Virus record (IMG/VR): IMGVR_UViG_3300021255_000060
Span: 1-62,960 of that record
DNA from: a virus
Lineage: Duplodnaviria > Heunggongvirae > Uroviricota > Caudoviricetes
Length of the DNA: 62,960 nucleotides
Strand: one strand, 5' to 3'
Under the pieces are notes generated by a model, which had not been told where the DNA came from, did no database searches, and worked only from the letters and a program-made list of their open reading frames with translations. Of the stretch, positions 746-62,822 are shown piece by piece (positions within the stretch are counted from its first letter, which is position 1; every line of letters begins with the position of its first letter). A program made the translations under genes and the position numbers.

Positions 746-766
746 GATAATATAGAAAGAGAATAT

Positions 767-796
767 AAAGCCCGTCTTAACGGGCGGGCTTTTTAG
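767..796 (+). terminator. Intrinsic terminator after MCP
   Basis: aaagcccgtc-ttaacg-ggcgggcttt stem followed by a T-run. Confidence 0.8.
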
Positions 797-833
797 TTTT
801 TAGATAAGATGTTTCAGATAATTGAGAAATAAT

Positions 834-1658: not shown

Positions 1659-1684
1659 TTAATTTGAAAATAACGATAGCCTAT

Positions 1685-2560: not shown

Positions 2561-2584
2561 TTTAATTCTTAAATTTAGAAAATT

Positions 2585-13136: not shown

Positions 13137-13167
13137 CAAATTTAACAAAAATATATAACAGTACAAA
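13137..13167 (-). promoter_or_regulatory. Bacteroidota sigmaA-type promoter (minus strand)
   Basis: TTTG (13167-13164), 19 nt, TAAATTTG (13144-13137). Exact match to TTTG-N19-21-TAnnTTTG. Confidence 0.75.
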
Positions 13168-45192: not shown

Positions 45193-45415
45193 CGTTCATT
45201 ATTTCTATAACTCGTTGTATAGGAAATGTAGAAAATTTATTTCCTGCATCTACCCAATCTCTTGTTTCTTGTAATAAAATCTTTACATGGTTATCCCATT
45301 TATCTGGCATCGTAGCATTAATAAAAATCATTAAACTTACAGAACATAACATTCCAAGGTAAAAAATACCTGCAGCAATTAATGCTATGAATATAATCCA
45401 AAGTACTGTATACAT
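45182..45415 (-). CDS. Small membrane protein
   Basis: 77 aa with a hydrophobic N-terminal helix (VLWIIFIALIAAGIFYLGMLCSVSLMIFI). Confidence 0.55.
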   Translation of the reverse strand: MYTVLWIIFIALIAAGIFYLGMLCSVSLMIFINATMPDKWDNHVKILLQETRDWVDAGNKFSTFPIQRVIEIMNDDS

Positions 45416-46107
45416 TTGTTTATTTTATTAAATAAGTCTTTTAAGTCTCCATTATTGGTAATTATATAATTAAAAGCATCTTCGTTTAAGAGATCAATCA
45501 CTTCTCTTTCTGAAGAATGTGTTCCAGGCTGTGTTCCAGGACGGTCAATGTATATTGTAATACCTTTACGTTTTTTGATTTCTTCTAATTCTACTCTAAA
45601 CCGTAAATCAGATATAATTAATTTTTCTCTTGTATTTATAGTACAATTTATCCAAAGTTTATCACTTAAGAATTTTCTAAGTACATTGGTTCCACAATAT
45701 TGCATTAATTGTCTTACAGATATCCAATAATCAGATGGGATTGGTTCTCCAGATTTAATATATTTATTAAATTGATTATCAGTTAATGTTTTATCAGGTA
45801 AAGCAATTCCGTTTGTGTAAAGTTCTTGTAATGTATCTAATTGTACATAACAATTTTCTTTGAAGTTTCTGCTTTCAAAAGTTTCTGGTCTAACTTTTAA
45901 TATGATAGCAAGGACTTCTTTTAAAGGTTTAGCAAATGAAGTGATTTTCCACTTCTTGCTAAACCTTATTTTTCTTTTATATCACCAATAAGTTCTAAAA
46001 GGTTTAGGAGTATTTAAAAGATATTCAAACATTGCAGCAGCTTCAGTTTTGCCACTATTCTTTAAACCACCAACTGCTATGATATTAGTTTGTAATGTAG
46101 ATCCCAT
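45385..46107 (-). CDS. Deoxynucleoside monophosphate kinase (1 TGA=Trp)
   Basis: ATG 46107, IIAVGGLKNSGKT P-loop, SFAKPLKE, SVRQLMQYCGT, ISDLRF. In-frame TGA at 45984-45982. Ends TAG. Confidence 0.85.
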
Positions 46108-47075
46108 ATATTCATATGTTTTAGTTCATCAATACTAATGTATTTATCTTGATATGGAAATTCTACAGTAGTATATCTGTTACCAATAATTTTAATTATT
46201 GTCTCTAATTGTAAAGGAGTTATTGTTTTTTCATTATGTTCTGAATCTGGAGTAAATATTTTATCTCCGTGCTGTTTAATCCATTTATTCTTTTCCATCC
46301 ATTCATCTGGATTATTTGATTCTGGAACAATTTGCTGATCCATTAAACGATTAGATATATTAATATGCAGAAAGTTAGCAGCAGTTCCATCCAACCCATA
46401 ATAATCTCCATTCGGGGCAATCCATCCAGCATCATGATATTCCTTTGTAGGAAGAAGTTCACCTAGTTCAGCTATTCTTCTATAAGCATCTGTATATTTT
46501 GATAAAGCTTTTTCTTCTGGAGATTCAAAGTTATCGTTTAACATTTCTTCTTTATAATGATTTAACATTCCTTGAACATAACAAATGTCTTGTAGATCTT
46601 CTCCAAACAAATAGTTCCAACAGTCATTTATTTTTTCAAGAATAGAAATATCATTTATAATATCTTTATATGTTCGGAAGTAACAATTTACATCATCGTT
46701 ATAGTAAAATGGATCTTCATTGTGAATACAATAATTAACAGCATCACTAAATTCTAATGTTATATATCTTATCCTTGTTTTTAAGTTATATATATTAAAA
46801 TCAGTCCATCGTTTTTCAATGTAATCAACTTCTTCTCGCAAGCACTCTGTAATATCTATTGTGTTATTTTCATCCGGTACATCTTCAACATCTCCTCCAA
46901 AATCAGAGTTCATTACAAGTGACTTGTTGCCTAATAAGATATCTGCTATTAACTTTGGCTCTTTTGGAAGTCCTAAAGCATCACACAAGAAAGATTCTGC
47001 ATCGTGTATATTATAATCACATGCTACTTTTTCTCTGGCTATTTTGAGTGTTAAATCTACTAAATCGTTAACCAT
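46077..47075 (-). CDS. Hypothetical protein with GW-x-x-P-x-G motif
   Basis: 332 aa intact ORF. AGWIAPNGDYY is a recurrent phage motif of unknown function. Confidence 0.7.
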   Translation of the reverse strand: MVNDLVDLTLKIAREKVACDYNIHDAESFLCDALGLPKEPKLIADILLGNKSLVMNSDFGGDVEDVPDENNTIDITECLREEVDYIEKRWTDFNIYNLKTRIRYITLEFSDAVNYCIHNEDPFYYNDDVNCYFRTYKDIINDISILEKINDCWNYLFGEDLQDICYVQGMLNHYKEEMLNDNFESPEEKALSKYTDAYRRIAELGELLPTKEYHDAGWIAPNGDYYGLDGTAANFLHINISNRLMDQQIVPESNNPDEWMEKNKWIKQHGDKIFTPDSEHNEKTITPLQLETIIKIIGNRYTTVEFPYQDKYISIDELKHMNIWDLHYKLIS

Positions 47076-47935
47076 AACTTTTCTTTTAGTTCATTTGCAA
47101 GTTTTTGCATGTCTGGATGCGCTGCTTTATCACATCTGAGTTTGAAGAAGCCATTCCAATCATCTTCAAACCCAGTCATAACAACTTCTGTTTTAGTTGC
47201 ATTAGGGAGAACCTCTCTTGCTTCCTGTGGTTTGCAACCAGAATCAATAAGAGTCATATATGCCGCTTCACAATGATCCAAAGCATGAAGAAAATTTAAT
47301 TTTAATGGATCATCGGCAATATCTGATCCAAGGTATATTTTGTCTTCGTCTCCCTGATTATAATTTAACCAATAAGGAATAATATATGTAATTTCACTTC
47401 CAAATTTACCTTTATTATATCCGATGTAGCGTTGAGATTCTTGCATAAAAGAAAATACGCGATGACGCACTAGTTCATGACTTATAGACCTACTACAAAT
47501 AAATCTCACTGTTATTCTTTTTATATGATGAATACTTGGCAAAGAAATATATTGTAAATCCTCTTGCCAATCATTTTCATATATTACTCTTGCGTTAGTT
47601 GTAATATAATACCAAGTATATCCATCTGCAGATACATGATCTACAACTCTAGAGTATGGATTTTTCTTATACCGTTGTATTAAATCAAATACTTCAATGT
47701 AGTTTGGATCGGACAAAGGTGTTCCAATTCTAGCAATAAGATAAATTGTACCATGTTCGAGTGGTGCAGTATGACCTCTACTGATGAGCATATCTACAAA
47801 TTTCTTTGCTGAATCTTCAGTAATTCTATCTTCCGATTTGTAAGAGGTTCTTCCTGCAATTTCAATCTGTTTATATATTCCATCTAATCCTTCAGATTGA
47901 GGAATTATTTCAACAGAGCTATTAATTAATTTCAT
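47060..47935 (-). CDS. thyX: Flavin-dependent thymidylate synthase
   Basis: GHTAPLEH, RSISHELVRHRVFSFMQESQRY, AREVLPNA, FFKLRCDKAAHPDMQ. Confidence 0.95.
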   Translation of the reverse strand: MKLINSSVEIIPQSEGLDGIYKQIEIAGRTSYKSEDRITEDSAKKFVDMLISRGHTAPLEHGTIYLIARIGTPLSDPNYIEVFDLIQRYKKNPYSRVVDHVSADGYTWYYITTNARVIYENDWQEDLQYISLPSIHHIKRITVRFICSRSISHELVRHRVFSFMQESQRYIGYNKGKFGSEITYIIPYWLNYNQGDEDKIYLGSDIADDPLKLNFLHALDHCEAAYMTLIDSGCKPQEAREVLPNATKTEVVMTGFEDDWNGFFKLRCDKAAHPDMQKLANELKEKLWLTI

Positions 47936-48185
47936 TCTTTACTATTTTACATGTACCATCCCAGAAATCTCCGCAGATGAGAAATCCAGTATCTTTTCCA
48001 GATTCAAAGTATATTCTTCCACTATAAAATCCAGCACCAGGATCTGCATCAAAATCTGATATATCATATCCAAATTCTTCTAGTACTTGTCTTACTTGGC
48101 CAAATGGAAAATCACTCAAATCAAGCTCCTGAGGACCATCTCTCAGGAGTTGTTCTAACTGATATTTTATACTAGGAAATATCAT
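47922..48185 (-). CDS. Hypothetical protein
   Basis: 87 aa ORF in a tightly packed operon. Confidence 0.6.
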   Translation of the reverse strand: MIFPSIKYQLEQLLRDGPQELDLSDFPFGQVRQVLEEFGYDISDFDADPGAGFYSGRIYFESGKDTGFLICGDFWDGTCKIVKNEIN

Positions 48186-48411
48186 ATTCTAAAAAATTAA
48201 CATCTATATCAAATCCAAAGAAATCAAAGCATAAACAATCTAATATTTGCAATCTTAACCAGTCAAACATCTCTTCACTACTTTGAAATTTTACATTTGC
48301 ATTTACTCTATATTCTAGAACATCTGATTCAAATTTAATATCACATATATTAAGAACCAGTTTATATTTTACCCAAATATTGTGTTCGTCATACGGTGCC
48401 ATATTAATCAT
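48172..48411 (-). CDS. Hypothetical protein
   Basis: 79 aa ORF overlapping its neighbours. Confidence 0.55.
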   Translation of the reverse strand: MINMAPYDEHNIWVKYKLVLNICDIKFESDVLEYRVNANVKFQSSEEMFDWLRLQILDCLCFDFFGFDIDVNFLEYDIS

Positions 48412-48574
48412 CTATTTTAGTTAATATACATTCATACCCCATTTTATAAGGATATGCTTTTTCTATTTGTGTTTGTGCATCGAATTTATCTCTTGCACTA
48501 ATCCATTCTTTAAAATCATCTAACAATTCGTGATGATTGTTATATTTTGAAATTATAAATGTAAATTTTGGCAT
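48404..48574 (-). CDS. Small hypothetical protein, 56 aa (not in track)
   Basis: MPKFTFIISKYNNHHELLDDFKEWISARDKFDAQTQIEKAYPYKMGYECILTKIDD. Fills the gap exactly. Confidence 0.6.
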   Translation of the reverse strand: MPKFTFIISKYNNHHELLDDFKEWISARDKFDAQTQIEKAYPYKMGYECILTKIDD

Positions 48575-48575
48575 A

Positions 48576-48719
48576 TTATCCAATTAAAATATATTGCCAT
48601 CCATCTTGCTGTGGATACTCATTAGAGATAATATCCAAAGCTTCATCTTCACTAAATGCATTCACATCTAATAAAAATTCACATTCTCCAAGACGAACGA
48701 AAAAATTATAAGTTCTCAT
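48576..48719 (-). CDS. Small hypothetical protein, 47 aa (not in track)
   Basis: MRTYNFFVRLGECEFLLDVNAFSEDEALDIISNEYPQQDGWQYILIG. Similar to the neighbouring 56-aa ORF. Confidence 0.6.
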   Translation of the reverse strand: MRTYNFFVRLGECEFLLDVNAFSEDEALDIISNEYPQQDGWQYILIG

Positions 48720-49113
48720 GGTATTTTTCATAAAAACGTCTTATGACATCTTCTCCAACTGGACGTTCTCTCAAAGCATCTCTTCTAATACATTCCTCAA
48801 CATCAGTAGAAATTAATTTATAATCTACCTCTGCATTATATTGTTTAGCAATTGCTTTTAATTTATTAATCTTTTTAGGATTTAAATTTGTATCATCAAC
48901 AATTACATTATATTTTTGATTAAATGCATAAGTTATTGATGTAAGTTCGATTTGTTCAACAAGTTTTTCTTTATTAAAATCACTTGTTACCAACATACTT
49001 CTAATATCATCCAAATTAACTCTTACATACGTTGGATCTTGTTTAACCATCTTTTTTGCAAGTGTTGACTTACCTGCTCCAGGAAGTCCAGCAAGAATAA
49101 TCATCTTAGCCAT
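48706..49113 (-). CDS. Polynucleotide-kinase-like P-loop kinase (AAA_33), kinase domain only
   Basis: AGLPGAGKSTLAK, VRVNLDDIR, VIVDDTNLN, ECIRRDALRERPVGEDVI. Confidence 0.85.
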   Translation of the reverse strand: MAKMIILAGLPGAGKSTLAKKMVKQDPTYVRVNLDDIRSMLVTSDFNKEKLVEQIELTSITYAFNQKYNVIVDDTNLNPKKINKLKAIAKQYNAEVDYKLISTDVEECIRRDALRERPVGEDVIRRFYEKYHENL

Positions 49114-49756
49114 TTTGAATAATCTTTTTTATTTTGTCTCTACGTAAAAGATCGTCTGTATACTTTTTGAATATAGTCAATTCCTCATTTAAGTAATCGT
49201 CAAACTTATTTAAATCGTATTCGTTTGCAGTGACTATGTTTCTATAATCTTCTGCAAGACATTTAAAGTTTACAATCTTATGATTTTCTATGATTTGATT
49301 TGAAAACTTTACTAATTTAAATAAATTAAACAATTCTTGTTGTGCAGAAATTATTGCTCCCTGTTTAAGAAGTTCTTTATATCTGTTTCTACACAATTGG
49401 TTTTCATATTCATAGCTTTTTCTAAGTTGAAGTGGATTTGTTTGTAGTAACAATTTTACATATTCTTTATGAATAAATTTTTTTGGCAAACAAGCACATT
49501 CCCAACCAAGCATTGAGCCATTCATTACAATTGGAAACCAGTTTTTAATTTCCACTCCGAGAAAATGATTATTTTCATCAAATGCCTCCAATTTAAATGT
49601 TGCAACATTTGAAAAATCTTGTGGACAATAGTCGTTTTCACAAATGACTATGAATTCTCTATTGTCCACATTTTTAAATAATCCGAATATTTGTAATCCA
49701 ACTTCATAGATATACAAGACTTTAGGATCTTCAATTAATTTTTCAAGTAATCCCAT
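49106..49756 (-). CDS. Hypothetical protein, possibly a degenerate nucleotidyltransferase fold
   Basis: 216 aa. VLYIYEVGLQIFG..DNREFIVI resembles the GS..YG..SDxD signature without the catalytic residues. Confidence 0.45.
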   Translation of the reverse strand: MGLLEKLIEDPKVLYIYEVGLQIFGLFKNVDNREFIVICENDYCPQDFSNVATFKLEAFDENNHFLGVEIKNWFPIVMNGSMLGWECACLPKKFIHKEYVKLLLQTNPLQLRKSYEYENQLCRNRYKELLKQGAIISAQQELFNLFKLVKFSNQIIENHKIVNFKCLAEDYRNIVTANEYDLNKFDDYLNEELTIFKKYTDDLLRRDKIKKIIQNG

Positions 49757-50046
49757 TATACACCAAAAGTATTAAGTAGTTCTTCCAAAGTTTCGCTATC
49801 TCTACTTTGAATCTTGTTTATAAGTTGGGACATGGTTTCTTTATCTACTTTATATGAATTTGTAAACAGATTTTTAGAATCTTCATCAATAGAAATATAA
49901 ACTAATCCAACAAATTTATGTGGATCTATTTGTAGATAATGTGTACTATTATTAAGTGTAATTTTATTCCCAATCTTACTAGTACATCTCCATTCTCTAA
50001 GTGCTAAATCACAAAGAGACATCATTCTATCTTTTATTTGTTTCAT
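49756..50046 (-). CDS. Hypothetical protein
   Basis: 96 aa with TAATG coupling on both sides. Confidence 0.6.
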   Translation of the reverse strand: MKQIKDRMMSLCDLALREWRCTSKIGNKITLNNSTHYLQIDPHKFVGLVYISIDEDSKNLFTNSYKVDKETMSQLINKIQSRDSETLEELLNTFGV

Positions 50047-51437
50047 TATGCATTATCTTCAATGTCTATTTCTCCTGCGTCCAATGCTTTTTGTTCTTTA
50101 TTTAAATGCCTAAACGTTTTTAGTTTCCAGGCTTCGGAACGCATTTTATCTTGCTTAATAACTATTCCTTCATGCGGAACAGAATTGTTACAATCAGGAG
50201 AATCTAATTCCATATAAAATTTCTTATCATCAGCAAGACGATTTAAGAAATTAGTAAACCAATTTTCATCTTGAATTATATCAGGATATAAATTTTTTGC
50301 ATATCCATAATAAAATTCAGGAACTGCTTTCAAACCATGAGTTTCACACCATACTTGTACTTCTCTTGGTGAAAACTCATGAACTAGTCCATCTACATTC
50401 GTTAGGGTAATGCGATAAACTCTTACTTTAAAATGTTTTTCTGGGGTATATGTTTCTCCCTCTTTTGGAGGAATGCATCCATAATCATAATTTTTCTGAA
50501 TCCATCCACCATTAGGTAAAAATCCAACAATTTCAGCATAAATAGTCATACCCTTAATTAGATAAGGTTTTAAATATTTATCTGCTTGTTCCCAAACATC
50601 TACTCCATAAAATCCAGATGTTACGTTTTGATTAATATATTTATTTTTAATTACTGTTCTAGAAGAATAAACATAATCGTATACTTCTTCATAAGGATTA
50701 AACCCTTTACCAGATACAAAATTACTAATACGTTTTATTAGATTAATTGGCTTTTTAGTAAGCACATATGCAGAAATATGAGAAGTACCATTCCATTTAC
50801 TCGTAATTGAAATTAAATCATTTGGATCTATTGCGTTTGGGCACTTCCTTAATTGAACTGTATCGTAATGTAGTCTAAATTGAGTATCTATAATTCTATC
50901 AAAACGTTTTATCTTCTTTTGTCTGCGGTTATATCGAGATTGAGAATTATTAGAAATTCTTTTTTCAACAATATATTTCTTATTTACCCAAAATTGTTTT
51001 CCGTTGTGCTCTACACTATCAAACTCCAATCCATTTATTAATTCTGAATCTGGAATTTCTTGATTAACAGAATCAACAACCCAATCCAATAAAATTTGAA
51101 TTGGAAGTAAAAAACCTTCAGATATTACACCTCTTAATTTAATTGCTTTAACCCTACCATTATCTTCAAACATTCCAGTCTGTTCTGGATTGGAATTGAG
51201 TTGTCCGTGACGATAGAGATTAGCGAACGAAAGAAATTGAGGATTAATAGTTGAGCTGGTTGGAAAATATACATATTTACCGGGTTTAGAATCAATACCA
51301 ACAATAATATTATATCCATCAACATACGCACATTTTAATTTAGTTACTTCTGGGTCTGAATGAGGGTGGAATTCATTTATTTCTACGATTTTTGCTAAAT
51401 AGTTAATATTAGCATTTTTTGATTTTATAAGTTTCAT
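50046..51437 (-). CDS. RNA ligase (DRB0094/Rnl2-like, N-terminal OB domain)
   Basis: N-terminal LAKIVEI..HPHSD..LKCAYVDGYNIIV. Ligase motifs ITSKWNGTS, TIYAEIVG, EGIVIK, WKLKT. Confidence 0.85.
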   Translation of the reverse strand: MKLIKSKNANINYLAKIVEINEFHPHSDPEVTKLKCAYVDGYNIIVGIDSKPGKYVYFPTSSTINPQFLSFANLYRHGQLNSNPEQTGMFEDNGRVKAIKLRGVISEGFLLPIQILLDWVVDSVNQEIPDSELINGLEFDSVEHNGKQFWVNKKYIVEKRISNNSQSRYNRRQKKIKRFDRIIDTQFRLHYDTVQLRKCPNAIDPNDLISITSKWNGTSHISAYVLTKKPINLIKRISNFVSGKGFNPYEEVYDYVYSSRTVIKNKYINQNVTSGFYGVDVWEQADKYLKPYLIKGMTIYAEIVGFLPNGGWIQKNYDYGCIPPKEGETYTPEKHFKVRVYRITLTNVDGLVHEFSPREVQVWCETHGLKAVPEFYYGYAKNLYPDIIQDENWFTNFLNRLADDKKFYMELDSPDCNNSVPHEGIVIKQDKMRSEAWKLKTFRHLNKEQKALDAGEIDIEDNA

Positions 51438-51441
51438 AAAT

Positions 51442-51545
51442 TTTAAAATTAAGCCTTTTCAGACACTTTGTTATATAAAATGACCTCCTATACCATGTGC
51501 CTATAAAAAGTTCAGCACACGGCACAAGAGGCCTTAAATTTTAAA
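51442..51545 (-). other. Structured RNA element in the RNA-ligase leader
   Basis: 17-bp uninterrupted stem (51531-51515 with 51500-51484) that pairs only on the minus strand via several G-U pairs. Enclosed by an AU-rich outer stem. Confidence 0.6.
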
Positions 51546-51702
51546 TTTTTGACTTTAATTTTTCGACTATATTTTTTAGAGTCAAATATTGACTTTTTAG
51601 AAATATATCATCTGAATTTTCATTTCTAGAATTATCATCAAGATATTCCTTTAAATGTAAATACAGAATTATAATTTCAAATACGCTTAAATTAATTTTC
51701 AT
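51541..51702 (-). CDS. Small hypothetical protein, 53 aa (not in track)
   Basis: MKINLSVFEIIILYLHLKEYLDD..KLKSKI. The ATG overlaps the end of YqeY. Confidence 0.5.
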   Translation of the reverse strand: MKINLSVFEIIILYLHLKEYLDDNSRNENSDDIFLKSQYLTLKNIVEKLKSKI

Positions 51703-52126
51703 TTATAAAGTCTAAAATTATTTGAGAATCAATCTTTTGTCCGAATTTTTCAACACATGCATCTTGAAACTTTTTAAATGAAGATTTTTGTTTAGGTATA
51801 TCAAGTTTATTTAAAAAGTCAACAACTTGTGTCTTACTTGGTTCTGGCGGAAGATAGTTATTTAATAAATTCAATTCTGTATTTTCCTGAATCCACAAGT
51901 CATTTCTACCTTCCGACAAATAAAGACTTGCGTTATCACTTCTTTCTTTATACATACTTCTAAGAATATCTATTGCTGACAATTTATTATTCTTAGAAGC
52001 GATGTAGTTAAAATCAGATTTAATGTTTCTTAATCCGGTTAATTTATTTTCATTTTTAGATAACCCCAAAAGCATTTCCTGCTTAATAGCTTCATCTATA
52101 TACGAAATAAATTCAATGTTATTCAT
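51692..52126 (-). CDS. GatB/YqeY-domain protein
   Basis: IKQEML..LRNIKSDF..ILRSMYKERSDNASLY..GRNDL..E..ELNLLNNYLP follows the YqeY pattern. Confidence 0.75.
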   Translation of the reverse strand: MNNIEFISYIDEAIKQEMLLGLSKNENKLTGLRNIKSDFNYIASKNNKLSAIDILRSMYKERSDNASLYLSEGRNDLWIQENTELNLLNNYLPPEPSKTQVVDFLNKLDIPKQKSSFKKFQDACVEKFGQKIDSQIILDFINEN

Positions 52127-52529
52127 TTGCTTTTTTCCAAAGAGTTTGTTTATCTACCGTAGGATTGTACACGTTGTCTATAATCTTTTCTGCAATTTCA
52201 TCACTAAAGATATAACCCAATAGATCATAAACAATATTCCATAATTTTTGAATCATAGGAGTATTTATAATATTCACTCCAAGATCTTCCAACTTTTCTT
52301 CTTCTGTACGAACAAATTCCAAATCATTAAGAAGAGCCAAAAACTCTTTCTCGTTCATAATAGAATTTACATATTCTTCAGTCTCTGACTTCTTATCCTC
52401 TTGTTTAGTGATTTCCTTTTCAGCTTCTGCAATTGCATCATCAAAAGCCTGCGGTCCAGCAAAATGAATAAGCATTTTTACAAATGGATCGTTTTTAAAA
52501 TTCTTAATGTCTTCTTCAGTAAATTTCAT
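52119..52529 (-). CDS. Hypothetical protein
   Basis: 136 aa acidic helical ORF. Confidence 0.65.
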   Translation of the reverse strand: MKFTEEDIKNFKNDPFVKMLIHFAGPQAFDDAIAEAEKEITKQEDKKSETEEYVNSIMNEKEFLALLNDLEFVRTEEEKLEDLGVNIINTPMIQKLWNIVYDLLGYIFSDEIAEKIIDNVYNPTVDKQTLWKKANE

Positions 52530-52547
52530 AATTGTTTTATTTTAAAG

Positions 52548-53729
52548 TTAATCTAAATCCTTCTCCCAACGAACACTTCTAAAAGATGGGAGATTTGGAA
52601 CAGGATGCTCTGTATTAGTCATACCAAAGTATTTTACAGTTCCCATCTGTCCAATTATTTCATCCAAATGGTTTCTATATCATTCTTTTAGTGCTCTATC
52701 ACCAATAGGTTTTGCTTTAAATTGAGTACCATCTGGCATCTCCATTACAAAACACATGTCTTCATCACGTAAACCTTCTGCAAGTCCAACTATCTTAAAT
52801 TCTGCATCATTAAAGATTTTTATTTTCATCATTCGATTGTCTCTTGCTCCAGGTTTATACTCTTTTTCTGGATCTCTTACAACTAATCCTTCATATCCTT
52901 TAGAGATGGCTTCATCATGCATTTGCATGATTTGGTCCAATCCTTTCACAGGTCTATGTTCCACGAATACAATTCTGGAGTCAGATGGTCTATCTTTTGC
53001 AAGTTCTCCAAGTTTTTTCGCTCTGAGCTTAAATGGAGTTTGTGTATCAACGATATCATAACAATGAAATACAAGTTCTTTATGCGCATCTACAAGTTCT
53101 TCACGTCTGCATAGTCCACTAATTGTTTGAAGATTTCAGAAATGTCGATATATTTCACCATCTAGAATCATTCCAGGATTCTCTGTAAGAATCTGAATAA
53201 CATATGGATCTTCTCGAATATATGTTGCAGGAATATCATAATCTTGACCACCTCTAGAAGAAGTATGAACTTCACCATCATGCATAAACAACAAACAACG
53301 TACACCGTCATGTTTATAACTTGCCAATCATTGCTTATCTGTCTGTGATGACTTGTCTCTATCCATAACTTTACATAGTTGAGGTTTAATTACTCCATTT
53401 TGATCTGTGTTGTCAATAGGAAGTGCGTTTTCTGCAGACTCTAAAGTGAGTTCTTCTATACCAAGGTCTTTAATGTTTTTATATCCTTTATCAAGATATT
53501 TTTTAAGTTCACTATTATATTGTAAAATACCTTGTTCGGTAACAGTTCTTGAAGCTTTACCTCTGTGAATCTCTATTACTGGAGCTATAACTTGTTTACC
53601 ATCTAATAAGCCACTTGATCTTTCAATTACATATGCGTGTAAATCGTCAGATCAACTAAGGGAAATATCGACTCTACGAATTTTTCCCTTAGCGTCTCTG
53701 CATATAAGTGTGTCTTGTGCTTTAGCCAT
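52548..53729 (-). CDS. ATP-dependent DNA ligase (393 aa; 4 TGA=Trp)
   Basis: ATG 53729 coupled to the dUTPase stop. Q(W)LASYKHDGVRC (KxDGxR), LDGEIY, YEGLVVR, MMKIK. Track fragments 53136-53327 and 52680-52964 are in frame. Ends TAA 52550-52548. Confidence 0.92.
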
Positions 53730-54175
53730 TATTTTATTCCACTGTGACCAAATCCTCCCATTCCTCTATCAGTAGAAGAAAGTTCATCTAATGTATTAAC
53801 TGGTACCCAATTAATCTGAGGGACTTGATTTATAACTAACTGAGCAATTCTATCTCCATGAAGAACAGCAAAATCTTCATCTCCTAGATTCATAAGAATA
53901 ACACCAATGCCATTTCTATAATCAGAATCTATTGTACCAGGAGAATTCAACACAAATACTCGTTTCTTAGCTGCAAGTCCACTTCTTGAGCGTACTTGAA
54001 TCTCATAACCTACTGGAATTTCTACATGCAAACCAGTTGGAATAATTGCACATTTTCCAGGTTTGATTATAACAGTTTGGTCTAAACTTGCTCTAACGTC
54101 CATTCCAGCAGAACCAATTGTTTCGTATTTGGGAAGTTCATTACTTCCAGCATTGTAAATTTTTACATCAATCAT
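53729..54175 (-). CDS. dut: dUTPase (trimeric)
   Basis: GSAGMDVRA, RSRSGLAAK, PGTIDSDYR, GDRIAQLV, RGMGGFGHSG. Confidence 0.96.
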   Translation of the reverse strand: MIDVKIYNAGSNELPKYETIGSAGMDVRASLDQTVIIKPGKCAIIPTGLHVEIPVGYEIQVRSRSGLAAKKRVFVLNSPGTIDSDYRNGIGVILMNLGDEDFAVLHGDRIAQLVINQVPQINWVPVNTLDELSSTDRGMGGFGHSGIK

Positions 54176-54393
54176 TATACTTCATTTTCATCAACATAAA
54201 TCTTATCTTTACTAAATCTATCATACCTCCAATTAGCAATAACAAGATCATCTTCAACAAGCATCCAAGAAACTTCAGATTCTTTGTAGCCTAATACATT
54301 ATATACGAAATCAGAGTAATCGTCAATATCATCAGGGACACTTCTTACAATATCAACATCTCCAAGTTCATAATTAAGAACAATTAACACCAT
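54175..54393 (-). CDS. Small acidic hypothetical protein (paralog pair, copy 2)
   Basis: 72 aa. LNYELGDVDI..LGYKESEVSWML. Confidence 0.6.
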   Translation of the reverse strand: MVLIVLNYELGDVDIVRSVPDDIDDYSDFVYNVLGYKESEVSWMLVEDDLVIANWRYDRFSKDKIYVDENEV

Positions 54394-54602
54394 ACTGGAT
54401 AAATATCATCGGTTTCTTCATCATATCTAAATGCCTCAAATGATGGCTTTTTATCAAATACATACCAATCAATATGGTCTATATCATATCCAAGTGAAGA
54501 AATAAATTCTTCTTGTCCATCAAGTTCTTCTAATGCTGGAATATTGCTAGCATTAATTAAATCACAACTGCCAGCAATATAATTAACTATCAGTATCCAC
54601 AT
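54384..54602 (-). CDS. Small acidic hypothetical protein (paralog pair, copy 1)
   Basis: 72 aa. VNYIAGSCDL..LGYDIDHIDWYV. Confidence 0.6.
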   Translation of the reverse strand: MWILIVNYIAGSCDLINASNIPALEELDGQEEFISSLGYDIDHIDWYVFDKKPSFEAFRYDEETDDIYPVWC

Positions 54603-54801
54603 TTTTCTTTACATATAATGTACAATGACATGTGTCGCTCTCTCTATACTCAAGGCAAGGACACATTCTATCTTCTCTTGTTTTCCCTGGGTTTACACAA
54701 GGACACTCTCCACCGTTTATTTCACAACGCTTCAAAATAGCATTAACCACTTTATCGTTAGGATTTAAATCCCAGCCTTCTTTTCTAAGAATTTGAATCA
54801 T
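54583..54801 (-). CDS. Ferredoxin-thioredoxin reductase catalytic-chain-like protein (72 aa)
   Basis: Start chosen at ATG 54801. GWDLNPNDKVVNAILKRCEINGGECPC..RMCPC..TCHCTLY gives the CPC/CPC/CHC FTR pattern. Confidence 0.75.
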   Translation of the reverse strand: MIQILRKEGWDLNPNDKVVNAILKRCEINGGECPCVNPGKTREDRMCPCLEYRESDTCHCTLYVKKNVDTDS

Positions 54802-55258
54802 TTTTCCAAAATTTATAGGTAATATCTTGAAATTTATTTTCAGAGTCTCTGCAATAGAATTTCTGATTTGTAGTTTTCTTATTAATTGGACCACATTCTT
54901 CTTTATATGGGCCAATTTTAATATAATTCAAACAATCTGGAACGTCCTCTGGTATGGAAGATCTTCCTGTATACCATGCTATTTTTAAATGTTTAAAAAG
55001 CATTGGTATAAATTTAAATAGATTATATAGTTCTTCCAAGTCAGAATCTCCACCCATAAAACAAATACAAGTAATACCATCGTTTTTATTTACCAAATCT
55101 ATTAATTTTCCCACACTCAATCACTCTCCAATATCTTCTCAAAGTTCTTTACTGTGACAACCTGGACAATGGTATGGACAATTTGATATATCTATACATA
55201 ACGTAACTTCATCAGGAACTTCTGAAAAAGTCACCAAACTATCAGTATATTTTAACAT
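54785..55258 (-). CDS. nrdG: Anaerobic ribonucleotide reductase activating protein (radical SAM; 2 TGA=Trp)
   Basis: FSEVPDEVTLCIDISNCPYHCPGCHSKEL(W)EDIGE(W)L, CICFMGGD, IAWYTG, IKIGPY. Adjacent to nrdD. Confidence 0.92.
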
Positions 55259-57405
55259 TTTAAATTATTTGCTGGATGATAAATCCTAGTTAACGCTTCT
55301 TTATATCGTTCTTTATCAAACTTTGGTACCGGTCGCAAATAACCAATAATTCTTGTTCAGTCTGTAGTTTCTTTACTTCCACATTTTGGACAAATATCAA
55401 AATGATGTTTTTCTATATGTCCACATTTATCACATTGACAATTTGGAATGTTAAATGTAAAATAAGAACACCCTACTTTGATGGCATAACCAATCAAATA
55501 TTCATATTGTTTTTGCGAAAGATGTTCACTAAGATTACAATGTAATCCAACTCCTCCATCAAGAGTACCAGTGAATTCACGTCCATGTAGTTTAAATCTA
55601 TCAAGAATAGAGGTATCTGGATCAGAAGCAAGATAAAAATAAGAGTTGTAGAGATTTCTGTTAGAAGGAACCCAATAACCATCCTCTTTATCTCAGTTAT
55701 AGTTCTTAGACGACAAACTCTCAGCAGGAACAAATTCTGTATTAAATTGATATTTACTTGTAGAATTTTTACGATTTAATTCAGAGATTGTGCTAGTTAT
55801 TAATTGACAGAACTTCTTATAATCATCATTATATGAACATTTAAGTCCGAGAAATTCTGCTGCTTCATTAATTCCGTTTAATCCAACAGTAGAATAGAGT
55901 TTAGACATTGTTATATATCCAGCCTTACTTGCTGTAAACATTCCATTTGCTTCTCATTCATATAACATTGTTTTATATGCAATATGATATTTGTGAACTC
56001 TTTCTACTACCTCTGTTAATAGATTTTTAATTCTTACATATGGAGGAATACTAGAATCAAATTCGGGTCCTCTACACGCATCTTGAGTTAATCGATTAAG
56101 ATTAATTGTAATTACATTACATGAACCAGTCTGAACTCCAGTTAAACCATTAGTGAATGAGAAAACATTCTCATTAATTTGATTACGTAAACGACAGCAT
56201 GATGCTAAACTATCAGGATTATCTGAAAGATATGTAAAGAAACTATGCCCGGCTGCATACATTTCTGTAGTAAGATCCTTATATGCTTTATCAATGACAT
56301 CTTCTCCATTTGTAAGCAAGGCCATTGTTTCTACAGGAAATGTTAACAATGTTTCACTTCTAGCATTATTGAATCAATGAATAAATAATCTTTGAAGATA
56401 ATCTATTCTTCTCCATTTAGGTTGTGTTCCATCAGGAAAATAAAAATCATCAAATAATGCATGCCAATAGTTTTCATCGTAATAAGAAATATTAGTAAAT
56501 GGTGATTGAGCTCCTCTGTTACCTGCGGGTTGATTTCAATTAAATACAACGTGTTGGAACTGTTGTTTGATTTTATCCTCAATAGTATCAGGATGATCAA
56601 ACAATTCTGGATTATCAACAAATGTATCTTTCTTTAAATCATAATCTTCACCATAGTCTTTAGCTGCATAATAATCGAAAAAATTAAAGAATTCTCCGAA
56701 TGCTACTGCACCTTTACATTGTGATGCAAGTAAAAATGTAGCATTCACAAGTTGTCCACAGAAAGAATCTAAGTGTTTTGGTGCTTTAGTACTTGTTCCA
56801 TCTAGTGTACCAGTTCCATTTAGCAAAGGATAAAGTGTAACTGCCTCACAATAATTTTTTATTACAGGAGTAGACGCTTCATCATGTGTATAAATTAAAT
56901 GACTTTCTAAGTCCTTTAAATATTGATCCGCCAATTCTTTTCCGTATAATTTTTCAATGGAATCATATGTCATAATCCTTTGTGTTTTACGATTTTGTGG
57001 TTTATATACTTCTGATTCCATATTTGCAACATTCTTCAAATTCATATTTGCATTTGGATCTGTTGCACTTGATGTTGCCGCATTCTCTCCATTTAATTGA
57101 TAATCCTTCATATATTTGATGTGTTCACGAAGAATTCTTTCTTCAGTATGTTTGTCTCTGTAAACAATATATGCTCTAGCAACATCATACCATTTATGCT
57201 CCATTAAAGATTTTTCGACAAAATCTTGAATCTCTTCAACTGTTTTATCTTCTTTAAATGTGAAACAAAGAGTCTCCAGATAATTTATAAGACTGTCTGG
57301 AGCATCAGTCTGTTCAACCGCTTTAAATGCTTTGTTTACAGCATTTTTAATTTTTTGAAAGTCAAACGGTTCAACACTTCCGTTACGTTTAATGACATTT
57401 ATCAT
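55252..57405 (-). CDS. nrdD: Anaerobic ribonucleoside-triphosphate reductase, class III (717 aa; 5 TGA=Trp)
   Basis: ATP-cone VIKRNGSVEPFD, LTFPVET, LASCCRL, KNYN(W)DKEDGY, Zn-site CxxC motifs, and glycyl-radical D(W)TRIIGYLRP. Ends TAA 55254-55252. Confidence 0.95.
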
Positions 57406-57406
57406 A

Positions 57407-58174
57407 TTACTTCAATAGATTAAATAAAGAGTCTACAAGTAAAGTCTTTTCATACTTTGCCATAATATCTTTATTATCATCAGTAATGATTTGAGTAAAT
57501 GCATTATAATAGTTAAATACACTACATTCTTCTGTATCTTTTACATAATATGGAGATCTGGAATCCATATATACCATTTGAAAAGCTTTTACACACATTG
57601 CACTAGAAATTTTTGCTTTACCTCCACTATTATTCCATTCTAGTGTCATTGCTTTTTCAATTTGCTCTCCAAGTACACGATGTACTGAATCTGGATCTCT
57701 ATCCAAGAATGTGTTTTTCATATTCTTTAATCTGACTTCGAGATCATTCGTTTGTTCCATCAAATTTCGAATAGAATATTTAAAGTTTTCTCCTGGTTGA
57801 AGTTCTTCAACCTTAAGCCAGTCTGGGTTAAATACGCATAGGTTTGTGCATGCACGATTAAGAGAACCTCTATAGACTTTATATACTGGGGTTCTTACAT
57901 CCAATCCATATAAAAGACTATATACTTCATCGTGATTATCAATACAATATTTATCCGGCATTACTGCCTGAATCCAGACTCTATTATAAGTCATATCCTC
58001 ATCACCATCAGTTAATGTAATTTGATCTGGCGTCTGGACATTTACTATAAACTTATCTGTAAATTTTGACATTTCGTCAAAGAATGGCTGAACATAATCA
58101 GCCGTGGGAAGATATTCTTTTCCCTTTATAATTGTAGGTTTGCCTTTAAGCAGCAATTCCGGTGTAATTTCCAT
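57407..58174 (-). CDS. Conserved crAss-like hypothetical protein
   Basis: 255 aa intact ORF. LLKGKPTIIKGKEYLPTADYVQPF..TYNRVWIQAV is recalled as conserved in crAss replication regions. Confidence 0.65.
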   Translation of the reverse strand: MEITPELLLKGKPTIIKGKEYLPTADYVQPFFDEMSKFTDKFIVNVQTPDQITLTDGDEDMTYNRVWIQAVMPDKYCIDNHDEVYSLLYGLDVRTPVYKVYRGSLNRACTNLCVFNPDWLKVEELQPGENFKYSIRNLMEQTNDLEVRLKNMKNTFLDRDPDSVHRVLGEQIEKAMTLEWNNSGGKAKISSAMCVKAFQMVYMDSRSPYYVKDTEECSVFNYYNAFTQIITDDNKDIMAKYEKTLLVDSLFNLLK

Positions 58175-58625
58175 TTATATAAACATTAATCATTCTTTCA
58201 TACTTTCTCTCACGTCTTTTATTTATGAGAGAAACTCCATCTCAATCTTGACCAATTTTAGATAACGGTTGTTTTGCATTTAATATTAGAAGAGCCTCTA
58301 TTATATGTGCTTCAGTCTTTGTTAAACCCATTGCGAATATTCTACAAGTTCATCCTGGGCCAATTGCTTTTGCTAAATTATCATTTCTATGATTAAATGG
58401 TCTAGATTTTTTTCATTCTGTCATTTTATGGGAAGTTAAATCATAATATCTTCCCATACCATAATAACAAGCGATTTTCATTTGATTTTCGAAGATATAT
58501 ACACAATATCCTCTATCAGATGATTCTTCTCTTGTTTTAAATATTTTTGTTACGTCTATTGTTCGATTAAGATCGACAGCATATCCCGCCGTAAATGGGT
58601 GTAATATCGGTAATTTAACCTGCAT
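58146..58625 (-). CDS. GIY-YIG nuclease-family protein (159 aa; 3 TGA=Trp)
   Basis: ATG 58625. GYCVYIF..CYYGMGR..H..MGLTKTEAHIIEALLI..LINKRRE. The frame continues through three TGAs to TAA 58148-58146. Confidence 0.7.
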
Positions 58626-58631
58626 AATAGA

Positions 58632-58670
58632 TAAAAAAATAAGGCCAGGCATCAACAAGATACCCGGCCT
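58632..58670 (-). terminator. Intrinsic terminator (minus strand)
   Basis: aggccgggtatc-ttgtt-gatgcctggcct (G-U pairs work only on the minus strand) followed by tattttttt. Confidence 0.85.
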
Positions 58671-58697
58671 ATTTTACATTGTTAATCAGCCGATTAA

Positions 58698-59222
58698 TTA
58701 AAACTGGCGTTCGTTACCAAAGACGATATAAGTACCTTCCTTGGTGTTAGTAGAAGGAACATAGTCAAGGGTGAAAGCGAGATCCTTACCCTCAGTGACG
58801 TGATAAACGATAACGCACTCAAGATCAGTCTTGAGATCAACCATGGCCTTCTTTGCTTTCTTCTCAGCTTCATCCTTCTTGGAAGCGGTGAGAACAACAG
58901 CACCATTGTCCTTACGACGGACTTCGTAAACGCGCTCAATATTCTTGCGACCCTCGACCACATTATTTGTGTACTTATACGGACGCTCGCGGGTGTCAGC
59001 ACTACCACCTGCTACAACAACCATAAGACCAACACCCTCGGCACTGGCAAGATGATTCTTCTGGAGAGAATCAATAGCAAACTCCTTAAAGGACTTGTCA
59101 GTAGTTGGAGAACCTGCATTCTTCCAAGACATAGTAACATTACGGACAACAGTCATACCAAGATCAGCGGCCTTAGCCTTTGCCTCCTCCATAGAGAAAG
59201 CCTTAATTTCAAAACGCTTCAT
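58698..59222 (-). CDS. Conserved, highly expressed crAss-like protein of unknown function
   Basis: 174 aa. ADTRERPYK..LAFTLDYVPSTNTKEGTYIVFG. Strong high-expression codon bias. Has its own promoter and terminator. Confidence 0.8.
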   Translation of the reverse strand: MKRFEIKAFSMEEAKAKAADLGMTVVRNVTMSWKNAGSPTTDKSFKEFAIDSLQKNHLASAEGVGLMVVVAGGSADTRERPYKYTNNVVEGRKNIERVYEVRRKDNGAVVLTASKKDEAEKKAKKAMVDLKTDLECVIVYHVTEGKDLAFTLDYVPSTNTKEGTYIVFGNERQF

Positions 59223-59338
59223 AAATCAATTAATTTTTAAAACATTAGTTCAATAGGAGTTCTTTAACCATCCCTACCTCCTTTAAAGGGATTTTGATTC
59301 CGTCAACAATTTATTTGTATCTTTCGGAATCAACAATA

Positions 59339-59369
59339 CAAAGATACAAATAATTTTTTTAAAAACAAA
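59339..59369 (-). promoter_or_regulatory. Bacteroidota sigmaA-type promoter (minus strand)
   Basis: TTTG (59369-59366), 19 nt, TATCTTTG (59346-59339). Confidence 0.8.
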
Positions 59370-59386
59370 ATAAAATTTAAAAAATT

Positions 59387-60442
59387 TTACAAAAACTGAA
59401 TTTCCTCATTTGAACCGAAAATTTGATATGCTGCAATTTCTTTAAGACAATATTCGGCTTCTATTTTTCCTTTTTTAAGCCAATACGAATTTAGATTGCA
59501 ACATTTACTATCGAAATTATCTCCAGTATGAACTACAAGGAAATTACATTCAGACTTCCATCCATTTTCTTTAGTTATACCTTCTTTACTATAAAATAAC
59601 CAAAGTATCCAATTATAAAGATAAAGCTGACGATAATAATGATAGTGAACAAGTGAACCATATTCTTCATTCATAAACCAAGGTGTAGGCTTAGATGAAG
59701 TTTTAAGATCATTTAGTGTTAGAGTTTTAGAATCTCGATTTATTGTGTAATTATCTGCTTTCATTTTAAATTTAAGTCTGGCACACTGTTTATCTTTATA
59801 TGTAACAATTAAATCTACAAAGAAAGCGGTTTCATTATATGACTCTACAGGTTGTCCAAAATCATCAATTGGATGAAGTTTTGACATTATTTGGTTATTA
59901 TCTGTGCAAGATTTAACACAACTTTCAACAATGTCGTAATCTTTATCTGACAGAATTATTTCTTCTATACCTTCCTTTTTCCATCTTGGTTCATCCAATT
60001 TTTCCCAATAAGGTGTACATTTTTCAATTATAGAGTTTACTTTTCTATCAATTTGATTTACAAAATATCCTACTTTTGTACAAGCCTCTCTAATAGCATC
60101 AATCCTATCCATTCCATCTTTTTCCAATTTATAAACCATATCTGCAACATCACCGAGTTTTGCAGAAGGCCTACCCATCTTAGGAACAAGTACGAAATCA
60201 TCAGGTTGAAGCAATAGTTCATGTACAGCACTACCAATTTTTAAACTGGATGTTTCAATTTTAGGAGAATTGTTATACAACTCTATAGATCCACCTTCAT
60301 TTGGATTAATATACTTAAGTCTGCTATTACTAATATAATTACTATACTTTTTAGAAAAATATTCTTCGTCTGACATATCAATCCTTTTAATTGAACTCAT
60401 GTCAGGGATAATTTTGAAGTCTGATAATTTTAATTGTAGCAT
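59387..60442 (-). CDS. PD-(D/E)xK exonuclease (RecE/ExoVIII/DUF3799-like)
   Basis: YISNSRLK, SLKIGSAVHELLLQP, KMKADNY, NDLKTSS, YHYYRQLYLY. Confidence 0.85.
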   Translation of the reverse strand: MLQLKLSDFKIIPDMSSIKRIDMSDEEYFSKKYSNYISNSRLKYINPNEGGSIELYNNSPKIETSSLKIGSAVHELLLQPDDFVLVPKMGRPSAKLGDVADMVYKLEKDGMDRIDAIREACTKVGYFVNQIDRKVNSIIEKCTPYWEKLDEPRWKKEGIEEIILSDKDYDIVESCVKSCTDNNQIMSKLHPIDDFGQPVESYNETAFFVDLIVTYKDKQCARLKFKMKADNYTINRDSKTLTLNDLKTSSKPTPWFMNEEYGSLVHYHYYRQLYLYNWILWLFYSKEGITKENGWKSECNFLVVHTGDNFDSKCCNLNSYWLKKGKIEAEYCLKEIAAYQIFGSNEEIQFL

Positions 60443-61206
60443 TATTTTATATTTAAATTTAAATCATAAATACGTCTGTGTCCAACATGATAATATTTAT
60501 TATGTGGAGCATCCATAAGATAACAGAAGATTCCAGCGTCAGTTGCATCTTTATAGTTAGCAAATTTATCGTCAATTAAAATGCTTACATTATGTTCCTT
60601 CAGTAAATCAAGCTTACTTTCATTCCATGGAACACAATAAACTGGAGCACAAGGAAATCCATTTCTTTCCAGATTTTCCTTTGTCCATTCAACTGGAATA
60701 CTTCTACTCGTAATATAAAGGTCTGGTTCAAATGAAGGCATATGTTTTGTTTTCAATGTAGTCCAGAACTCTTTATCTGTAGAAAGTTCTGTTAGTTTGT
60801 CCTTCATTTCATATGTACCATTCCAATAATCGTTTAATTTGATACCTGTTTTGCTTTCAAAACCTCCAACAAAATCTAAACAGACATCATCAATATCCAA
60901 TGCTACAATAGGTCTATTAATCGGAAGAAATTCACGATTGTCACCAGCGGGATTTATGAAAAAGTATTCTGTTAGAATTAAAGCATTTGCAGCAACTTCT
61001 GCAATACTTAAGTTATTTTCGGGAGTAAAATCTTCTCCAAGCTCAAATGCGGTTAAGTGCTTTTTAAGAGAAGACAGGACTTCTGTCCATTTCAGTCCTG
61101 TCTTCCAACCATTAACTTCGTATTTATCTAATTTTGAAGTTAAAACTTTATTTACTTCGTTTAGACCCCGCATAGGGACTAAATCGTATCTAATCTTCTG
61201 ATTCAT
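60442..61206 (-). CDS. DUF5664 (dATP/dGTP diphosphohydrolase-like) fused to HAD 5'(3')-deoxyribonucleotidase-like domain
   Basis: KIRYDLVP..KY..GWKTGLKWTEVLSSLKKHL.AFELGED followed by VALDIDDVCLDF and ILIDDKFANY. Confidence 0.8.
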   Translation of the reverse strand: MNQKIRYDLVPMRGLNEVNKVLTSKLDKYEVNGWKTGLKWTEVLSSLKKHLTAFELGEDFTPENNLSIAEVAANALILTEYFFINPAGDNREFLPINRPIVALDIDDVCLDFVGGFESKTGIKLNDYWNGTYEMKDKLTELSTDKEFWTTLKTKHMPSFEPDLYITSRSIPVEWTKENLERNGFPCAPVYCVPWNESKLDLLKEHNVSILIDDKFANYKDATDAGIFCYLMDAPHNKYYHVGHRRIYDLNLNIK

Positions 61207-62524
61207 TTAATATAAATTTATCTTCTTCTGCGTTCCACTCTATTCGAGGGTCAGTATAAAAATAATATTTTTCGTTAATTTTAACAAATTTGTCGCCATA
61301 CTTATATTTAGCATCATCCTCGTTGACAACTACGTGATCTAAAATATAATCGTCTGGATAATCAATTTCTTCATCATCTTCATCCAATACAGCAAAAACA
61401 TCGTGGCTACTACTTATATAATCAGATAGTGCTTCACAGTACCAACAACAATCATCGCAATAATAATCGTCATCATACTCAGAATAATGCATATCTTCGG
61501 GAAGATCATCCTCATAATCAGTATATGATGTGTGACCGCAACGTGCACAAGTATAACTGTAAGTTTCTTGCCAATATCCATCGGTTCTATCCAAGCTGTT
61601 TGTAAATCCAGACAACTCTTTAGTACAGATAGTATGTTCTCCATCAAAATATCTAAAAGAATCTACATAAGGAAAATATTCGTAGCATTTCTTTATATCC
61701 ATTTTGATAGGTTCATAAGTAACCTCTTGATAATCATCTTTTGGAGTTTTCCATCCTTGCGTTTCTCCAGTACTTAGAAGTGAATTATACTCTCTGATCC
61801 ACCAACCATTGTCCTTTGCATAATCAATGAAACAGTTGTCAAGATAATCAAAGCATGTATAAATCCTATCCAATAAAGTAATACCATTATCAAGTTCCCA
61901 CACAATTGCTCTACCAGTAAGTAAGCCATCTTTTTTAGAGATTAGCATTTTCGCATTATCTACATAAACATCCATATATTTTTGACATTCCCGATAACGC
62001 ATGCAGCTGTTACCAAGAGAACCAGCAATCTTAAAATAGTTGTCTTCAAGATACCATTTTCTAATATCTTCTCCTTCAACTATTTCAAAATTAGTACAAC
62101 AACAAATTTCAGCTTTCAGTCGATTGTTAAAAGTTTCCCAATCTATGGTTTTAAACTCTTTACGTACAAGTTTCTGAAAGATTCTAGTTGGTTTCCCAGA
62201 TTGTCTATTTTTTCTTGCCCAATCACCATTGTCATTATACTCTGCTTCTTTTCCTTCAGGAAGAAAACTGACTTCAAAGTCACCTCCCATTCTTGCAGTA
62301 ATCATTCTTACAGAATTTGTAACTAATTCGTTTACTGCATCTGGAACAAGAGAGAATACACTATACAGTGCATCATCCTCAGAAATCCAAGTATTTCTAT
62401 TATATGTATCAACAAGTTCATGAGTTTTACATATAATATTGGCGATTGGATCGTCATACTTATTACGTATAACTTTAAAGACCTCATACAGAGATCCACT
62501 CAAAATAGGTAAAAGTTTTTCCAT
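61190..62524 (-). CDS. Conserved phage hypothetical protein with C-terminal Cys-rich acidic region
   Basis: 444 aa. LGNSCMRY, GRAIVW, LLDRIY, YFPYVDSF, then CARC and CDDC..C. All 11 Trp are TGG. Confidence 0.7.
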   Translation of the reverse strand: MEKLLPILSGSLYEVFKVIRNKYDDPIANIICKTHELVDTYNRNTWISEDDALYSVFSLVPDAVNELVTNSVRMITARMGGDFEVSFLPEGKEAEYNDNGDWARKNRQSGKPTRIFQKLVRKEFKTIDWETFNNRLKAEICCCTNFEIVEGEDIRKWYLEDNYFKIAGSLGNSCMRYRECQKYMDVYVDNAKMLISKKDGLLTGRAIVWELDNGITLLDRIYTCFDYLDNCFIDYAKDNGWWIREYNSLLSTGETQGWKTPKDDYQEVTYEPIKMDIKKCYEYFPYVDSFRYFDGEHTICTKELSGFTNSLDRTDGYWQETYSYTCARCGHTSYTDYEDDLPEDMHYSEYDDDYYCDDCCWYCEALSDYISSSHDVFAVLDEDDEEIDYPDDYILDHVVVNEDDAKYKYGDKFVKINEKYYFYTDPRIEWNAEEDKFILNESED

Positions 62525-62790: not shown

Positions 62791-62822
62791 ATAAAAGGAA
62801 GCCCTGTTATTCAGAGCTTCCT
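62791..62822 (-). terminator. Intrinsic terminator (minus strand)
   Basis: aggaagctctg-aataa-cagggcttcct followed by tttatatt. Confidence 0.65.

Follow-up and report, generated by a model that had tools for sequence, protein, structure and literature searches.

We analyzed a 62,960-nucleotide stretch of DNA (the window) comprising bases 1-62960 of IMG/VR record IMGVR_UViG_3300021255_000060, a complete 167,986-bp phage record (Caudoviricetes) with terminal repeats and 18 tRNAs, and followed how in-frame TGA codons are distributed over the genes of its minus strand, which carries the replication module. The sequencing runs containing this stretch are mostly from bovine gut, and contigs of rumen metatranscriptomes carry parts of it. 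Taking TGA as a sense codon raised the coding density of the window from 0.73 to 0.96, and the residues aligned opposite TGA codons of this phage were tryptophan (Trp) in 350 of 562 cases, Phe or Tyr in 85, and Gly in none. By these sequence comparisons, TGA is read as Trp. TAG recoding and genetic code 25 were rejected for this phage from the comparison of codes in the window and from the alignments. A selenocysteine meaning in NrdG and NrdD was rejected since Trp or variable residues, not Cys, stand opposite these sites, and TGA does not serve as a true stop in the TGA-free genes, none of 16 conserved genes ending in it (the status of a few TGAs at the C-termini of genes in relatives is ambiguous). 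On the replication strand, the recoded codon forms a conserved gene-by-gene mosaic, in which TGA-rich genes stand beside genes wholly or nearly free of it.

Counts are given here as TGA/TGG codons per gene under genetic code 4, and pooled counts refer to ten TGA-recoded genomes. All five recoded genes of the replication module in the window lie on the minus strand. They encode a deoxynucleoside monophosphate (dNMP) kinase (45385..46107; PF21448; 1/4, with its TGA at 45982-45984; pooled 22/11 in 10 genomes), an ATP-dependent DNA ligase (52548..53729; PF01068; 4/1, first TGA at codon 26; pooled 26/23), the NrdG activase (54785..55258; 2/2; TGA-free in 4/8 genomes), the class III ribonucleotide reductase (RNR) NrdD (55252..57405; PF13597; 5/4; pooled 29/47; TGA-free in one relative), and a GIY-YIG-like nuclease (58146..58625; 3/0; pooled 18/11) found at this position in 9 of 11 genomes. 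The last is labeled from a motif in the alignment, no Pfam or PHROG profile matching it; its open reading frame (ORF) spans 58146-58658, and the real start is probably 58625. The identities of the other named genes in the window were confirmed by Pfam or PHROG.

Interspersed on the same strand are TGA-free genes for the thymidylate synthase ThyX (47060..47935; PF02511; 0/5; pooled 6/30), an AAA_33 polynucleotide kinase (PNK)-like protein (48706..49113; no Trp here; pooled 2/26), RNA ligase (50046..51437; 0/8; pooled 1/40), dUTPase (53729..54175; PF00692; 0/1; pooled 0/5), an exonuclease VIII-like protein (59387..60442; 0/7; TGA-free in 8/10 genomes), and a hypothetical phage protein, 61190 (61190..62524; 0/11; pooled 4/64 in 7 genomes). 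The strictest member of this class is gene 60442 (60442..61206; 0/6), which encodes a dATP/dGTP-diphosphohydrolase N-terminal domain fused to an NT5C-like HAD nucleotidase; its six invariant Trp codons are TGG in all ten genomes (0/60). Two further minus-strand genes without TGA appear, on comparison with relatives, not to belong to this class. The hypothetical gene 46077 (46077..47075; 0/6) is patchy and is not a stable member, C-terminal homologues in two relatives having three TGA each, and the conserved hypothetical gene 57407 (57407..58174; 0/3) is TGA-free here by chance, being recoded in 9/10 genomes (13/13). As a late-gene control, the 3' part of the putative major capsid gene and the next three genes (56..3469, plus strand) contain 0/12; the capsid identity is suggested by gene order relative to phage Lera, without a profile match.

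All counts given by an earlier, sequence-only reading of the window were reproduced. Among the 96 Trp codons of 26 minus-strand genes in the window, 15 are TGA, all of them in the five recoded genes (permutation p=5e-5). The alternation of the two types within apparent operons was borne out as well: stops and starts of TGA-rich and TGA-free genes overlap at dUTPase/ligase, at 46077/dNMP kinase, and at polymerase/peptidase/superfamily 2 (SF2) helicase. The functional line drawn by that reading, that only dNTP-supply and ligation genes (plus GIY-YIG) are recoded, is true inside the window only. It was misled because the window edge cut off the replisome at 63-75 kb on the same strand, where primase (6/0), DnaB (4/2), SF2 helicase (5/1), polymerase (9/2), and RNase H are all recoded; the core replisome is in fact the most heavily recoded set. 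Nor does nucleotide supply define the recoded class, ThyX, dUTPase, and 60442 being nucleotide-pool enzymes yet TGA-free.

To place the mosaic in a wider frame we used ten more TGA-recoded relatives and four TAG-recoded ones; one 57-kb close relative was left out of the pooled counts. Two scans with DnaB and primase returned fragments only. The pooled genomes are near saturation at silent sites (kappa about 0-0.27), and the mosaic has outlasted this saturation. Gene-level heterogeneity of TGA use in the ten genomes gave a chi-square of 381, compared to a null maximum of 70. With classes set in this genome (G000) and scored in the other nine, recoded genes had 323/203 and TGA-free genes 31/233, and the classes of the sequence-only reading, which had proposed such a comparison, gave 88/101 vs 18/157; the random spread of TGA among orthologues that would have spoken against that reading was thus not seen. 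The contrast was present in every genome (Fisher p<1e-3 in 9/10), and five held-out loci show the same pattern. Clear-cut cases by pooled counts are 60442, RNA ligase, and 61190 on the TGA-free side and primase (40/11), SF2 helicase (48/14), and polymerase (54/21) on the recoded side. Late virion genes are recoded too, the late strand of the ten genomes holding 960 TGA and 597 TGG codons. Class shifts do occur: a clade of two genomes has recoded versions of both exonuclease and ThyX.

The likely decoder is a Trp-type opal suppressor tRNA with anticodon UCA and an ARAGORN-predicted cloverleaf, at G000 c[79692-79763] on the minus (replication) strand, 17 kb past the window end; a UCA tRNA was found in 7/9 further near-complete TGA relatives. 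Wherever a suppressor was detected in a TGA genome (8/8), it is encoded on the replication strand at a distance of 14-23 kb upstream of primase; the conserved recoded genes start downstream of it, at RNase H. In the TAG relatives, the suppressor is on the late strand (3/3) and the replication orthologues are without TAG; Mgcod reports this late-strand layout as the usual one (bioRxiv 10.1101/2022.06.29.495998). The difference in position is consistent with the code switching earlier in the TGA clade than in its TAG relatives. Neither a release factor nor a tryptophanyl-tRNA synthetase (TrpRS) was detected in the five genomes searched. Promoter motifs of Bacteroidetes type and the TGA-free early genes may point to a host with the standard code.

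Several side observations concern this tRNA region. At about 79892 of G000 (minus strand), 130 bp upstream of the suppressor, there is a Bacteroidetes sigma-A-like motif; G002 and G010 have one as well, whereas none was found in the others. The suppressors of five relatives, G001 c[80187-80280] (L275:3925-3957), G003, G008, G010, and G013, carry tandem anticodon arms, UCA first and CCA second, the latter occupying the variable position and the paired stems differing, whereas that of G000 has a single anticodon arm. Such tRNAs occur in loci L253-L286, and 32/34 pattern matches in viral contigs are of this kind; we did not find tandem-anticodon-arm suppressors in the literature searched. At G000 c[83959-84033] (L112:3959-4033), ARAGORN reports a tRNA-like gene whose anticodon is UUA (ochre) and whose T-arm is poor; it is probably a pseudo-tRNA or mimic because TAA is the main stop here.

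The TGA share of Trp codons is 0.63 in recoded replication genes and 0.66 in recoded late genes, and the A-ending share of Lys, Glu, and Gln codons (0.77-0.85) lies above both. Embedded TGA-free genes have a share of 0.07 and the upstream early genes one of 0.01, with other codon usage alike. Since the recoded genes sit at the late-gene and background level, what departs from background is the lack of TGA. Conserved Trp sites flip between TGA and TGG in 45 of 50 cases, invariant TGA sites show no excess over chance (4 vs 2 expected), and the number of orthologues without any TGA (12) matches expectation (12.4). Complete loss of TGA in the five genes singled out by the sequence-only reading was seen seven times (2.5 expected); in G013, the dNMP kinase, ligase, and NrdD are all TGA-free. 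UGA is costly even late, because the late, strongly codon-biased genes 56 (the putative capsid gene) and 2585 have 0/62 in relatives; the idea that TGA-free genes are simply early ones therefore fails, a TGA-free gene need not be early.

We consider selective avoidance of TGA, on top of an early code switch, the probable explanation of the mosaic. We infer that the suppressor tRNA would be made before the replisome block is translated and would compete with host release factor 2 (RF2), so that UGA could be read through early, though never free of cost. Where gene products are required in moderate quantity once the switch has taken place, as for primase, helicases, polymerase, RNase H, ligase, NrdD, dNMP kinase, and most virion genes, TGG would then drift to TGA under AT mutation pressure up to about 63-66%. 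Purifying selection would purge TGA from genes that act before the switch or without the suppressor, i.e., the upstream early genes and, in the window, RNA ligase, PNK, exonuclease, 60442, 61190, and ThyX, and also from genes needed in high amounts (putative capsid proteins, single-stranded DNA-binding protein (SSB), and 58698). Full-length replisome proteins could not be made without UGA suppression, so that replication would depend de facto on the suppressor, with no evidence that TGA is retained for this purpose.

A number of findings weigh against this explanation. The UCA tRNA went undetected in two near-complete TGA-recoded genomes, G007 (L176-L184) and G009 (L194-L202), even at a relaxed threshold, and the contrast in tRNA position rests on two lineages, the three TAG genomes being related. 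Non-Trp codon usage fails to group the embedded TGA-free genes with early genes (p=0.49). Between most of these genes and their recoded neighbors no promoter was seen, which means that a timing difference within one transcript would have to be purely translational; a sigma-70 scan performed below chance, and a scan for the Bacteroidetes motif revealed no promoter specific to TGA-free blocks. Furthermore, two signals are weakly lock-like: the core-replisome orthologues retain TGA in 67/67 cases (1.8 losses expected, not significant), and the first Trp codon of recoded genes is enriched in TGA (87/119 vs 302/508, p=0.006, from non-independent counts), an excess without a match in the Lys, Glu, and Gln codons.

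Dose might account for the pattern alone if the whole module were translated together after the switch and inefficient TGA were avoided in abundant proteins, while being tolerated in low-copy enzymes or tuning them down. The TGA-free late putative capsid genes speak for such an effect, as do two genes of the same operon with 3/25 and 2/16, the shared operons, a weak negative correlation between TGA fraction and codon-bias index among embedded genes (rho -0.47, p=0.018), and the lack of a detected phage release factor that would remove competition. In T4 and T7, SSB and recombination proteins outnumber primase or polymerase, which is in keeping with dose. The embedded TGA-free genes, however, are unremarkable in codon bias (median index -0.11 vs -0.13 in recoded genes, p=0.14), unlike the capsid-like genes (+0.15 to +0.18), and the small accessory genes upstream are all TGA-free regardless of bias. 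The replication module forms one early class in phi14:2 (bioRxiv 10.1101/2020.03.07.982082) and a middle class in crAss001 (PMC8375218). We regard dose as the sole cause as unlikely, and for the embedded TGA-free genes we lean somewhat toward timing or suppressor-independence.

It is rather improbable that TGA acts as an active translational lock, positively selected in chosen replication genes such that bulk DNA synthesis could start only after the code switch. Part of the interpretation given by the sequence-only reading did stand: the pattern is gene-specific, its gene classes are conserved, and full-length replisome proteins need UGA suppression, truncation at the first TGA being expected to destroy enzymes such as the ligase (codon 26) or DnaB (codon 8). 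The retention of TGA throughout the core replisome and its 5' excess would suit a lock, too. Selection for TGA is the part that did not hold, as TGA does not rise above late-gene or mutational levels and no site is invariant beyond chance. Genes for dNTP supply and ligation lose all TGA in relatives (as in G013 and in half of the NrdG genes, in excess of expectation), ThyX, dUTPase, and 60442 are left unlocked, and an unrecoded replisome serves replication in TAG-recoded relatives and in phage Lera (PMC12386605 Table S1). A narrower variant, a replication checkpoint at translation within shared operons, seems to us no better placed than the general lock. The core replisome (primase, helicases, polymerase, RNase H) would be held behind 5'-biased UGA, while the RNA ligase/PNK pair for tRNA repair, recombination functions, and nucleotide-pool enzymes would stay host-readable to restore or protect the suppressor. 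If this were true, the phage could remain transcriptionally active and non-replicating, in a carrier state, until the suppressor is charged.

Import of the TGA-free genes, recently from or by steady exchange with standard-code phages, is very improbable as a general cause. Gene 46077 and many small accessory genes are patchy, and the distances of RNA ligase, dUTPase, and AAA_24 follow the core poorly (rho 0.36, 0.19, and 0.14). Against this, exonuclease and 60442 keep their position in every TGA and TAG genome and have trees in line with the core tree (rho 0.88 and 0.86), 61190 tracks the core as well (rho 0.74), and genes that clearly were swapped are still recoded: the NrdD of G006 has 6 TGA although it falls within the TAG clade, and the relocated polymerase of G008 has 4/4. 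From these trees, import appears largely refuted for 60442 and exonuclease, and with it the alternative offered by the sequence-only reading for the conserved TGA-free genes; import may have acted in small accessory genes, and we do not extend the refutation to RNA ligase or dUTPase. The idea that a small number of TGA codons fell this way by chance, or that the pattern stems from sequence errors and pseudogenes, can practically be dismissed: Trp codons are few per gene and 57407 did become TGA-free by chance, yet the permutation tests, the repetition of the pattern in nine genomes and at five held-out loci, and the Trp residues opposite TGA in homologues all stand against it.

Other features of the locus were noted alongside the mosaic. 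Gene 58698 (58698..59222, minus strand; 2/9) has high-expression codon bias, the strongest on its strand, is kept in all relatives, and forms a monocistronic unit (58642-59372). It is preceded by a Bacteroidetes sigma-A-like promoter motif (TTTG ... TAnnTTTG; 59339..59372, minus strand), which is found there in 10/10 TGA genomes and is the only one on this strand between 45 and 79 kb, and it is followed by an intrinsic terminator-like hairpin (58642..58670, minus strand), with hairpin and T-run present in every relative inspected. A second terminator-like hairpin (62796..62822, minus strand) stands after a RusA-like gene, upstream of the TGA-free 62576-61190-60442-exonuclease run. Directly after NrdG, at 54583-54804 (minus strand) and outside the set of the gene caller, lies a small CPC/CPC/CHC protein (0/1 here, TGA in G007) that presumably resembles the ferredoxin-thioredoxin reductase catalytic chain. 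Divergent promoter motifs at 13137 (minus) and 13223 (plus) mark a gap in the late operon and are conserved in relatives. In G010, G009, G001, and G003, ORFs that split replication genes (RNA ligase, AAA_24, ligase, NrdD) are TGA-rich even within TGA-free hosts, often with a host-type promoter motif just upstream; they are probably intron endonucleases.

From its size, 18 tRNAs, TerL and portal hits, and gene order, we provisionally place the phage with the Zeta-group crAss-like phages. It falls within the Zeta size class of 145-192 kb with many tRNAs, its TerL and portal match PHROGs, and its order of helicase, DnaB, AAA, SSB, primase, resolvase, nucleotidase, exonuclease, RNR, dUTPase, ligase, RNA ligase, PNK, ThyX, and dNMP kinase, facing giant ORFs, matches that of Lera in Table S1 of PMC12386605. 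The giant ORFs and a 475-aa gene sit where a virion RNA polymerase and a crAss-type capsid protein are expected, without a profile or Protein Data Bank (PDB) match; PDB searches with the putative capsid and ring proteins and with 60442 returned nothing. Relocation or replacement of the polymerase in G008 and G009 and the swap of NrdD between clades in G006 are as reported for Zeta phages. Lera (PMC12386605) and the Zeta circular metagenome-assembled genome OLWB01000021 (PMC7886860) share gene order, size class, TGA read as Trp, and a UCA tRNA with this phage. For Lera, however, Table S1 gives primase, replicative helicase, polymerase, ligase, and RNR as unsuppressed, while they are recoded here. 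A Zeta PolB with in-frame TGA was shown by Yutin 2021 (PMC7886860), as a single anecdote without per-gene analysis.

Recoding in crAss-like phages and passing mentions of recoded replication genes are known. In the open-access literature searched we found no per-gene study of recoding in crAss replication modules, nor a description of a conserved mosaic inside a single replication module that goes with the position of the suppressor. The mosaic links the set of recoded genes to the location of the suppressor tRNA and makes it testable whether recoded stops are regulators or tolerated drift. Trp codon choice may serve as a sequence-only marker for suppressor-independent or high-dose genes, and annotation of such replication blocks under code 11 breaks primase, polymerase, ligase, and RNR.

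In Lak, Jade, and Agate phages, stops have been proposed as translational regulators (Borges, bioRxiv 10.1101/2021.08.26.457843), with their use in replication machinery described as 'variable', mostly recoded in Lak. Gene-level avoidance there concerns integrases and enrichment concerns lysis genes, whereas here a subset of the replication module is depleted and enrichment was seen nowhere; the release factor/TrpRS code-change module of Jade was not found here. Block-structured recoded crAss-like phages (PMC7886860; bioRxiv 10.1101/2022.06.29.495998; bioRxiv 10.64898/2026.08.21.746148) resemble this phage in reading a stop as sense through a phage tRNA, in upstream early genes readable either way, and in recoded late genes; sparing of the major capsid gene is stated for them as well (bioRxiv 10.64898/2026.08.21.746148). 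Their code switch falls at the strand switch, their replication genes are dual-coded, and the late strand has the suppressor at its 5' end; among the genomes compared here, only the TAG relatives keep the recoded codon out of their replication genes. In the present phage, by contrast, the replication strand is a conserved gene-by-gene mosaic, with a replisome at 0.63 TGA and the suppressor on that same strand, and the published two-block model of host-readable replication and recoded late genes contrasts with the replisome-spanning switch of this clade.

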